Below are positions 10,331-11,027 of a stretch of DNA of 42,323 bases, one piece after another. Location of the stretch: assembly GCF_003334385.1 (NCBI RefSeq), contig NZ_QOWN01000038.1; one strand, 5' to 3'. The position numbers were made by a program, and so were the translations under genes. Origin of the DNA: Escherichia coli. GTDB lineage: Bacteria; Pseudomonadota; Gammaproteobacteria; Enterobacterales; Enterobacteriaceae. How positions within the stretch are numbered: position 1 is the first letter of the stretch; the number at the start of each line of letters is the position of its first letter. The notes beneath the pieces were generated by a model, which worked only from the letters and a program-made list of their open reading frames with translations, was not told the DNA's origin and made no database searches.

Positions 10331-10378
10331 AAAGGAGTAGCAAGTTGAGCCATCTTGCTGCTCCTTTTTGCATTTTTA
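10331..10378 (+). terminator. Stem-loop plus T-tract downstream of hdeB (candidate terminator or attenuator ahead of yhiD)
   Basis: aggagtagcaag / cttgctgctcct stem (11 of 12 pairs) followed by ttttgcattttta; ends 2 nt before the yhiD ATG. Confidence 0.45.
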
Positions 10379-10379
10379 T

Positions 10380-11027
10380 ATGACAGCAGAATTTATTATA
10401 CGTCTTATACTCGCGGCAATTGCCTGTGGCGCTATTGGCATGGAAAGGCAAATGCGCGGCAAAGGAGCAGGGTTACGCACACATGTATTAATTGGCATGG
10501 GAAGCGCCCTGTTTATGATTGTTTCGAAATATGGTTTTGCTGACGTGCTGTCTTTAGATCACGTCGGACTCGACCCCAGCCGTATTGCTGCTCAGGTGGT
10601 GACGGGCGTCGGGTTTATCGGTGCAGGTAACATTCTCGTTCGTAACCAAAATATTGTAGGTCTGACGACGGCAGCGGATATCTGGGTGACCGCCGCCATA
10701 GGTATGGTTATTGGCAGCGGTATGTACGAACTGGGTATTTATGGTTCAGTGATGACCTTGTTGGTGTTGGAAGTCTTCCATCAATTAACCTTCCGCCTGA
10801 TGAACAAAAATTACCATTTACAGCTGACATTAGTGAACGGTAATACGGTATCAATGCTCGACTGGTTTAAGCAGCAAAAAATAAAAACTGATTTAGTTTC
10901 GTTGCAGGAAAATGAAGATCATGAAGTGGTCGCCATTGATATCCAGCTTCATGCCACAACGTCGATAGAAGACCTGTTGCGATTATTAAAAGGTATGGCA
11001 GGGGTGAAAGGCGTTTCAATTAGCTAA
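10380..11027 (+). CDS. yhiD: MgtC-family inner membrane protein YhiD
   Basis: Recalled YhiD (215 aa) starts MTAEFIIRLILAAIACGAIGMERQ, at ATG 10380 inside the 219-aa ORF; MgtC-like hydrophobic N-domain. Confidence 0.9.
   Translation: MTAEFIIRLILAAIACGAIGMERQMRGKGAGLRTHVLIGMGSALFMIVSKYGFADVLSLDHVGLDPSRIAAQVVTGVGFIGAGNILVRNQNIVGLTTAADIWVTAAIGMVIGSGMYELGIYGSVMTLLVLEVFHQLTFRLMNKNYHLQLTLVNGNTVSMLDWFKQQKIKTDLVSLQENEDHEVVAIDIQLHATTSIEDLLRLLKGMAGVKGVSIS

Follow-up and report, generated by a model that had tools for sequence, protein, structure and literature searches.

Leaky intrinsic terminators are an established feature of operons, with examples at the rplL-rpoB and rpsO-pnp junctions. Sites of this kind, which form sub-operons, are pervasive in E. 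coli, and at prs-dauA and dapA-bamC they consist of a hairpin and a U-tract placed between co-directional genes (Yan et al. 2018, PMC6131387). At such junctions the upstream transcript is in excess, the downstream gene relies on the small share of transcription that reads through, and regulation at the promoter is common to the genes on either side. Translation starts that dispense with a Shine-Dalgarno (SD) sequence provide a second point of comparison: SD-independent initiation on unstructured, A/U-rich start regions, assisted by S1, has reportedly been found by Scharff et al. (2011) and by Komarova et al. (2005). A third is provided by attenuators and riboswitch platforms, where a terminator immediately precedes a coding sequence.

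The hairpin between hdeB and yhiD of Escherichia coli belongs to the first of these classes, that of leaky intrinsic terminators which divide an operon into sub-operons. As at prs-dauA and dapA-bamC, a hairpin and a U-tract lie between co-directional genes and upstream RNA is in excess. However, read-through is about 2% when judged from RNA abundance, compared with 5-50% at many of the sites described by Yan et al. 2018 (PMC6131387). Moreover, unlike at other leaky terminators, the start codon lies 8 nt past the termination point and the terminator makes up the whole 5′ leader. Like the SD-independent starts, yhiD has no complement to the anti-SD sequence, a U-rich tract directly upstream and an A/U-rich, open beginning of its reading frame; unlike them, it has a very stable hairpin reaching to position -9, where the SD duplex or the S1-bound strand normally sits. 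With the attenuators and riboswitch platforms the element shares the terminator immediately before a coding sequence and an AGGAG motif sequestered by a CUCCU, anti-SD-like 3′ arm. In contrast to them it is intercistronic, has neither antiterminator nor aptamer, gives no Rfam match, and carries its AGGAG without a conserved start codon at working distance.

We consider it very likely that this hairpin is the Rho-independent terminator of the hdeAB mRNA, that read-through of about 2% supplies yhiD, whose start lacks an SD sequence, and that the whole constitutes a fixed step-down in expression. In substance the feature is already known, as two published tables of genome-wide scope list its 3′ end and the operon has been annotated; in the literature searched, no targeted study of the hdeB-yhiD junction, of its read-through or of yhiD ribosome profiling was found. 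It would be an ordinary means of keeping a downstream operon gene low, with little import beyond annotation, and would explain how abundant HdeA and HdeB and mere traces of YhiD come from one GadE-controlled promoter. The arrangement is mildly unusual in that the start codon abuts the terminator and lacks an SD sequence in a gene under strong purifying selection. yhiD may thus serve as a small case for SD-independent initiation, although this is not a long-standing question. For operon databases that list hdeAB-yhiD as one unit, the data suggest the addition of an hdeAB sub-unit ending at K-12 position 3655910.

The hdeB-yhiD junction

The DNA analysed, hereafter the window, is a stretch of 42,323 nt from E. 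coli contig NZ_QOWN01000038.1 and is the E. coli acid fitness island. In the annotation, the hdeA, hdeB and yhiD genes are flanked upstream by hdeD, which is divergent, and downstream by dctR and slp, which are convergent. A 501-nt query around the hdeB-yhiD junction matched 5,419 of 5,426 complete E. coli genomes, BL21(DE3) being 100% identical to it. Window positions are converted to K-12 MG1655 coordinates by subtracting them from 3666282. The features of the locus are the following.

9491, + strand: transcription start site (TSS) of the hdeA promoter (K-12 3656791; SMRT-Cappable-seq in M9, row 3655910-3656791, reverse)
9542-9874, + strand: hdeA coding sequence (ORF list and annotation)
9990-10316, + strand: hdeB coding sequence (annotated ATG at 9990, stop codon TAA at 10314-10316)
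10317-10328, + strand: spacer from the hdeB stop codon to the terminator, poorly conserved (Escherichia lineages differ in 9 of its 12 columns)
10329-10344, + strand: 5′ arm of the hairpin with the preceding A4 (AGGAGTAGCAAG is 10333-10344, with AGGAG at 10333-10337)
10345-10353, + strand: hairpin loop, TTGAGCCAT, the sole variable part of the hairpin
10354-10369, + strand: 3′ arm of the hairpin, CTTGCTGCTCCT, with the proximal U-tract (the arm alone is 10354-10365)
10370-10379, + strand: distal U-rich tract, GCATTTTTAT, also serving as the entire purine-poor yhiD leader (1 of 10 columns varies)
10371-10372, + strand: mapped 3′ end of the hdeAB RNA (K-12 3655911/3655910; Term-seq and SMRT-Cappable-seq)
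10380-11027, + strand: yhiD coding sequence (inner-membrane protein of the MgtC/SapB family, 215 aa), without SD sequence

Structure of the hairpin and U-tract

The core stem, formed by AGGAGTAGCAAG and CTTGCTGCTCCT, comprises 12 bp (6 G-C, 5 A-U and 1 G-U) and closes a loop of 9 nt with 2 internal pairs. A10329-10332 are able to pair with T10366-10369, and these four extra A-U pairs would lengthen the stem to 16 bp. The core stem is directly followed on its 3′ side by UUUUGCAUUUUU. The nucleotides after the stem are T5 (10365-10369), GCA, T5 (10373-10377) and AT, and then comes the yhiD ATG at 10380-10382. A preliminary description of this DNA had the T-tract end at 10378. The second T run actually ends at 10377, whereas the statement that hairpin and T-tract abut the ATG at 10380 was correct. 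The same description had located the only SD-like sequence, AGGAG, inside the stem and about 45 nt upstream of the start; this motif does sit in the stem, at 10333-10337, and ends 43 nt before the ATG.

Folding gives the core hairpin a predicted energy of -19.4 kcal/mol, and of -23.0 kcal/mol with the A-U extension. The 91-nt region around it folds at -29.4 kcal/mol (z = -4.27), and none of 200 shuffled sequences did as well. When both strands of the 42-kb window were scanned for hairpins followed by a T-tract, the hdeB terminator ranked joint second among 113 sites, and the comparable top-scoring sites are obvious gene-end terminators. It is absent from a standard terminator scan because its 9-nt loop exceeds the limit of 8 nt imposed there. 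The site thus has the stem (G+C-containing, about 5-14 bp), the short loop and, directly after the stem, the U-tract (7-9 nt) that are expected of intrinsic terminators. An Rfam scan of positions 8500-12500 returned noise only, in the form of a miRNA model on both strands of the hairpin with E = 0.15.

The mapped 3′ end and the step-down from hdeB to yhiD

Published transcript maps contain an RNA 3′ end at this site. By Term-seq it lies at 3655910(-) in LB at OD 2.0, with a mean of 61,204 reads (Adams et al. 2021, PMC7815308, Supplementary files 1 and 3), and at 3655911(-) in M63, with 193,294 reads (PMC7815308). The authors labelled it 'orphan' and '-8/-9 upstream of yhiD'; their Term-seq data from exponential LB, where the hdeAB-yhiD operon is silent, have no entry at this end (PMC7815308). 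SMRT-Cappable-seq in M9 (Supplementary Data 1) found a full-length transcript from TSS 3656791 to a termination site (TTS) at 3655910, covering hdeA and hdeB fully (Yan et al. 2018, PMC6131387). Among the 28 reads at this TSS, a small count, 14 stop at the TTS, another 2 run beyond it and 3 finish within 50 bp; the median read-through is 34.5 bp, and the site was classed as 'novelTTS', i.e. missing from RegulonDB at that time (PMC6131387). The mapped end falls 6-7 nt beyond the core stem, with the yhiD ATG a further 8-9 nt on. It was observed in vivo and within the U-tract, where intrinsic terminators end transcripts about 7-9 nt past the stem.

RNA levels differ strongly across the hairpin. 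At pH 5.5, RNA-seq of the wild type and of the delta-gadE mutant gave FPKM values of 19,808 and 258 for hdeA, 13,433 and 79 for hdeB, and 244 and 1.97 for yhiD (Seo et al. 2015, PMC4918353, Supplementary Data 1). yhiD RNA thus amounts to 1.8% of hdeB RNA in the wild type, about 55-fold less, and to 2.5% in delta-gadE. The figure of about 2% used here is an upper-level estimate from RNA abundance and is distinct from a measured read-through frequency. A lower abundance of the downstream transcript is what an intrinsic terminator produces. The preliminary description had proposed that yhiD expression depends on terminator read-through, with Term-seq or RNA-seq across the hairpin as the check and uniform coverage as the outcome that would speak against it. 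The published data already provide this check. The in vivo 3′ end seen by two methods and the RNA drop of about 55-fold support the proposal, and uniform coverage is absent (13,433 FPKM for hdeB against 244 for yhiD).

The same 3′ end could in principle be produced by processing. A full-length hdeAB-yhiD transcript would then be trimmed back to the hairpin, which would act as a stabiliser of the hdeAB mRNA; trimming could be carried out directly by 3′-to-5′ exonucleases or follow an endonucleolytic cleavage in the untranslated part of yhiD. Term-seq, SMRT-Cappable-seq and RNA-seq report steady-state ends or levels only, and in Term-seq and steady-state RNA-seq termination, 3′-to-5′ trimming and faster decay of the yhiD segment all look alike. 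Rapid decay, or exposure to Rho, would be the expected fate of a yhiD segment that lacks an SD sequence and is poorly translated. Furthermore, in the neighbouring hdeA-hdeB spacer a still stronger 3′ end marks the base of a hairpin that lacks a U-tract, and this end resembles a processed one. The hdeB-yhiD site, however, has every sequence feature of an intrinsic terminator, U-tract and upstream A-tract included. Its 3′ end lies 6-7 nt past the stem and inside the U-tract, whereas trimmed ends are usually nearer the stem base. Finally, the U-tract and its spacing are as invariant as the stem, although a pure exonuclease block would not need them. We infer that the 3′ end arises by termination and not by trimming, and we regard the processing route as unlikely. 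A table of Rho regions obtained with BCM is without entry at the site; the cells had been grown in LB to OD 0.5, where hdeAB is barely expressed.

The yhiD translation start

The yhiD ATG at 10380 is also the start in K-12 (b3508) and in the PGAP annotation. Homologues from other Enterobacterales start at the same position with the motif M-x-x-[DE]-[FL]-[LI]-x-R, and both the start and the motif match in Citrobacter, Yersinia, Erwinia, Rahnella, Edwardsiella and others. Alternative starts were rejected. The TTG at 10368 likewise has no SD sequence and is unsupported by the N-termini of homologues, and a start at M25 or M29 would remove the conserved first transmembrane helix.

The best duplex that yhiD can form with the anti-SD sequence between -20 and -3 has an energy of +2.2 kcal/mol, the weakest among 33 neighbouring annotated genes; only 0.9% of random positions have a weaker one. 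This last place among the 33 genes agrees with the earlier claim that yhiD lacks an SD sequence, and the purine-rich anti-SD complement that SD-led starts carry 4-15 nt upstream is missing. The absence is so extreme because the yhiD leader is composed of the pyrimidine-rich 3′ arm and the U-tract. Across Escherichia lineages the duplex energy ranges from +1.2 to +2.2 kcal/mol and all copies are without SD. By contrast, the non-Escherichia homologues with the same start all have a recognisable SD sequence (-2.9 to -12 kcal/mol). Only the Escherichia copy, located behind hdeAB, is therefore SD-less.

Folding of the read-through RNA predicts that the hairpin is formed up to position -9, with a pairing probability of about 1, and that positions -8 to -4 are open. 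Positions -3 through +5, with the exception of +2, are predicted to be mostly paired in a weak local helix that takes in two letters of the start codon, A and G. Over its first 15 nt as a whole, the reading frame is A/U-rich and predicted to be largely open (mean probability of being unpaired 0.71). Initiation at yhiD would thus be SD-independent, and the 'atypical initiation' suggested earlier is consistent with the missing SD sequence. It is probably also inefficient. The YhiD protein went undetected in one published proteome.

The hairpin might, in addition to terminating transcription, serve as a translation-initiation device for yhiD, either through coupling to a small reading frame (uORF) that begins in the loop or because the folded hairpin at -9 positions the 30S subunit or the 70S ribosome. 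We think this quite unlikely. If it were true, the HdeB:YhiD ratio would be fixed, in transcription as in translation, by a single invariant element of 50 nt.

Shared control of hdeA, hdeB and yhiD

The three genes respond together. Without gadE, hdeA, hdeB and yhiD all drop about 100-fold, yhiD itself 124-fold, and the GadE site listed for the hdeAB-yhiD unit is located only upstream of hdeA (PMC4918353). In published data they are equally co-induced under microaerobiosis (log2 values of 5.42, 5.84 and 5.21 for hdeA, hdeB and yhiD, respectively) and fall into a common RpoS-response class. Because of this co-regulation and of the steady ratio of 1.8-2.5%, we attribute the yhiD mRNA to the hdeA promoter, by way of a small and roughly constant read-through. 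A discrepancy comes from one RT-qPCR study, in which a 10-min shock at pH 2 raised hdeA and hdeB 2-fold and left yhiD unresponsive. Read-through may vary with conditions, or the measurement may just have reached its limits.

The preliminary description had seen in the hairpin a built-in attenuation point. This is tenable for a fixed step-down; the lack of an antiterminator, the similar ratios of 1.8% and 2.5% and the equal microaerobic induction give no sign of a regulated one. A regulated attenuator would let a signal (pH, Mg2+, hdeB translation, a small RNA or a protein) tune read-through into yhiD. Condition-dependent read-through at intra-operon terminators does occur genome-wide in E. coli (Yan et al. 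2018, PMC6131387), and the acid shock that acted on hdeA and hdeB and left yhiD unchanged would fit such a device. However, the nascent RNA up to the loop, folded over lengths of 74-154 nt, gave -10.8 to -18.4 kcal/mol and contained no antiterminator, i.e. no stable pairing that competes for the 5′ arm. Neither an exclusive antiterminator nor a ligand- or protein-binding domain, as attenuators and riboswitches possess, was found upstream, and the 12 nt preceding the hairpin are unconstrained. The hdeB stop codon is 13 nt before the extended stem (17 nt before the core), and the last ribosome would probably remain short of the stem. Moreover, wild type and delta-gadE have similar yhiD/hdeB ratios (1.8% vs 2.5%), and the fold changes of the three genes are equal under microaerobiosis. 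Regulated attenuation therefore appears very unlikely to us. Read-through would be unregulated, and the terminator is apparently strong and constitutive.

Another explanation is a promoter belonging to yhiD itself, situated inside hdeB or overlapping the hairpin. In the latter case the mRNA would be leaderless or nearly so, and yhiD would be largely independent of hdeAB; transcripts from a promoter inside hdeB would have to pass the terminator too. The island is AT-rich, bound by H-NS and prone to internal promoters, and a promoter-like match of 10/12 is found inside yhiD at 10492-10519. In one study hdeAB but not yhiD responded to acid shock, and an SD-less start codon is typical of leaderless mRNAs. 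Nevertheless, the sequence scan found no promoter-like hexamer pair upstream of the ATG, nor any such site in the interval from hdeB to the ATG. In the SMRT-Cappable-seq tables searched (Yan et al. 2018), b3508 is not covered by any transcript, and K-12 36560xx-36562xx, within hdeB, is free of other TSSs. Neither the scan nor the SMRT-Cappable-seq coordinates searched thus revealed the TSS at or near the AUG, with its spaced promoter, that characterizes a leaderless mRNA. In delta-gadE yhiD is down 124-fold, like hdeA and hdeB, the listed GadE site being upstream of hdeA, and yhiD stays constant at 2% of hdeB. In the literature searched, a yhiD promoter is not mentioned. We hold this explanation to be highly improbable, and read-through appears to be the sole significant source of yhiD message.

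According to the terminator model that we favour, RNA polymerase starting at the hdeA promoter (9491) would release most transcripts at 10371/10372, in the U-tract and 6-7 nt past the 12-16 bp stem. About 2% of the polymerases, by the steady-state RNA estimate, would continue and produce an hdeAB-yhiD mRNA. In this mRNA the yhiD AUG would be 8 nt past the termination point, with a 5′ leader built from the 3′ arm of the terminator and the U-tract; a leader of this composition therefore has no room for an SD sequence. Initiation of YhiD synthesis would be SD-independent, at an A/U-rich and weakly structured start beside a hairpin folded to -9. The effects of the terminator and of the SD-less start would multiply, giving a fixed and large step-down between the abundant periplasmic HdeA and HdeB and the low-copy inner-membrane YhiD, while hdeA, hdeB and yhiD would all remain under one promoter controlled by GadE, RpoS and H-NS.

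Conservation and selection

In a scan of genome contigs with YhiD, Escherichia was the only genus to have hdeAB upstream of yhiD (in E. coli lineages, E. whittamii and cryptic-clade species), and the junction is therefore not comparable outside it. Within E. coli, the 60-nt element occurs as a single copy in 5,418 of 5,426 complete genomes, and 4,838 carry it in identical form. Comparison of the Escherichia lineages shows purifying selection on the hairpin, the U-tract, the spacing and yhiD. In the stem and A/U-tract 31 of 32 columns are invariant, so that the variable ones number 1/32 there against 13/21 in the loop and spacer (Fisher p = 3e-6). Of the 10 nt separating the hairpin from the ATG, only 1 varies. 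The one change in the stem, found in O157:H7 strain PA20, turns an A-U pair into G-U and keeps the pairing. The Escherichia alignments show no compensatory covariation in the stem, 15 of its 16 pairs never varying. The structural argument therefore rests on invariance and on the experimental 3′ end.

The loop is the part that varies, at 4 of its 9 positions, with CCGAG in lineage L002 and TTATG in lineage L003. This bears on the possible coupling of yhiD translation, by re-initiation, to a uORF of 12 codons that runs from the TTG at 10345 to the TGA at 10381-10383 (MSHLAAPFCIFI*). AGGAG is followed after 7 nt by this TTG in the loop, and the stop codon overlaps the yhiD start as ATGA, the classical geometry of coupling. 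In the window and in lineages L004, L005 and L006 this frame is uninterrupted, and such coupling would account for the translation of an SD-less yhiD. But the hairpin has -19 to -23 kcal/mol and, in read-through RNA, a predicted folding probability of about 1, and it holds both AGGAG and TTG locked within or beside it. Furthermore, 2 of 6 Escherichia lineages have lost the TTG, L002 reading CCG and L003 TTA in its place, and the TTG belongs to the least constrained part of the element. We hold it to be highly improbable that yhiD is translated in this way. A small RNA derived from the hdeB 3′UTR was rejected, no conserved seed being present from the hdeB stop codon to the hairpin.

Finally, the yhiD coding sequence was compared between the window and the Escherichia lineages. 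Synonymous divergence (dS) ranges from 0.14 to 1.3 and dN/dS from 0.02 to 0.12. yhiD is under strong purifying selection and is therefore evidently translated in nature.

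RNA 3′ ends in hdeA and the hdeA-hdeB spacer

The Term-seq data of Adams et al. 2021 (PMC7815308) place an RNA 3′ end in the hdeA-hdeB spacer at K-12 3656317/8, 25 nt upstream of the hdeB ATG, with 176,188 reads in LB at OD 2.0 and 406,178 reads in M63. In Term-seq strength this end exceeds that of the hdeB terminator. It lies 1-2 nt beyond the base of the following hairpin:

9907-9963 (within 9907-9965): long imperfect hairpin in the hdeA-hdeB spacer, lacking a U-tract

The spacer 3′ end looks processed or trimmed, yielding a monocistronic hdeA transcript. The higher FPKM of hdeA compared to hdeB (RNA-seq of Seo et al. 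2015, PMC4918353) fits such a product. A second Term-seq 3′ end is located inside hdeA, at K-12 3656455 (window 9827), in M63 (PMC7815308).

The hdeB-yhiD junction and its variants

A short reading frame begins within the loop of the hdeB terminator hairpin:

10345-10383: 12-codon ORF, TTG...TGA (MSHLAAPFCIFI, then stop)

By sequence reading, an AGGAG motif sits 7 nt upstream of the TTG, and the stop codon of the ORF overlaps the yhiD start as ATGA. In the alignment, two loci from Escherichia lineages have other codons in place of this TTG, CCG in L002 and TTA in L003. L003 has instead gained an ATG in frame with yhiD, at the position corresponding to 10347, which would lengthen YhiD by 11 residues.

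Two further loci carry altered versions of the junction. In E. coli BHD6 (L085, NZ_CP141791.1 232573-232747), an IS903B element has landed precisely in the start codon of yhiD (...TTTTTAT|GGCTTTG), destroying yhiD and leaving the hdeB terminator intact. An Escherichia-type hdeA-hdeB-yhiD locus is also found on an 8.6-kb contig labelled Flavobacterium paronense CECT 8460 (L007, NZ_JAUFQN010000010.1), where hdeA is frameshifted and a 1-nt deletion shortens the U-tract. This contig most likely reflects contamination of the Flavobacterium assembly, an error-rich long-read contig, or both.

The reverse complement of the terminator element (10329-10369, minus strand) folds into a hairpin as well, at -14.3 kcal/mol, with TTTTTACTTG after it. 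Judged from its sequence, the element could work in both directions, countering antisense transcripts that run from slp-dctR through yhiD; the Term-seq lists contain no minus-strand 3′ end in the interval 10329-10369 (PMC7815308). The best promoter-like match of the region is located inside the yhiD coding sequence:

10492-10519 (+): sigma-70-like match, TTGGCA-16-TATGAT, 10/12

In this H-NS-silenced island, the match may represent a spurious intragenic promoter.

hdeB start codon and gadE 3′ region

The annotated hdeB start at 9990 has a weak Shine-Dalgarno sequence (-3.1 kcal/mol), and a second ATG of the same ORF is present 4 codons upstream, at 9978 (MGYK-MNISS...; window 9978-9992). Two features overlap in the gadE 3′ region:

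7110-7388 (+): PGAP 'hypothetical protein', antisense to the gadE 3′ UTR
7209-7249 (-): strong hairpin (-19.0 kcal/mol) followed by T8, within the 'hypothetical protein' stretch

This hairpin with its T8 tract probably serves as terminator of gadE and marks where the small RNA GadF ends at its 3′ side.
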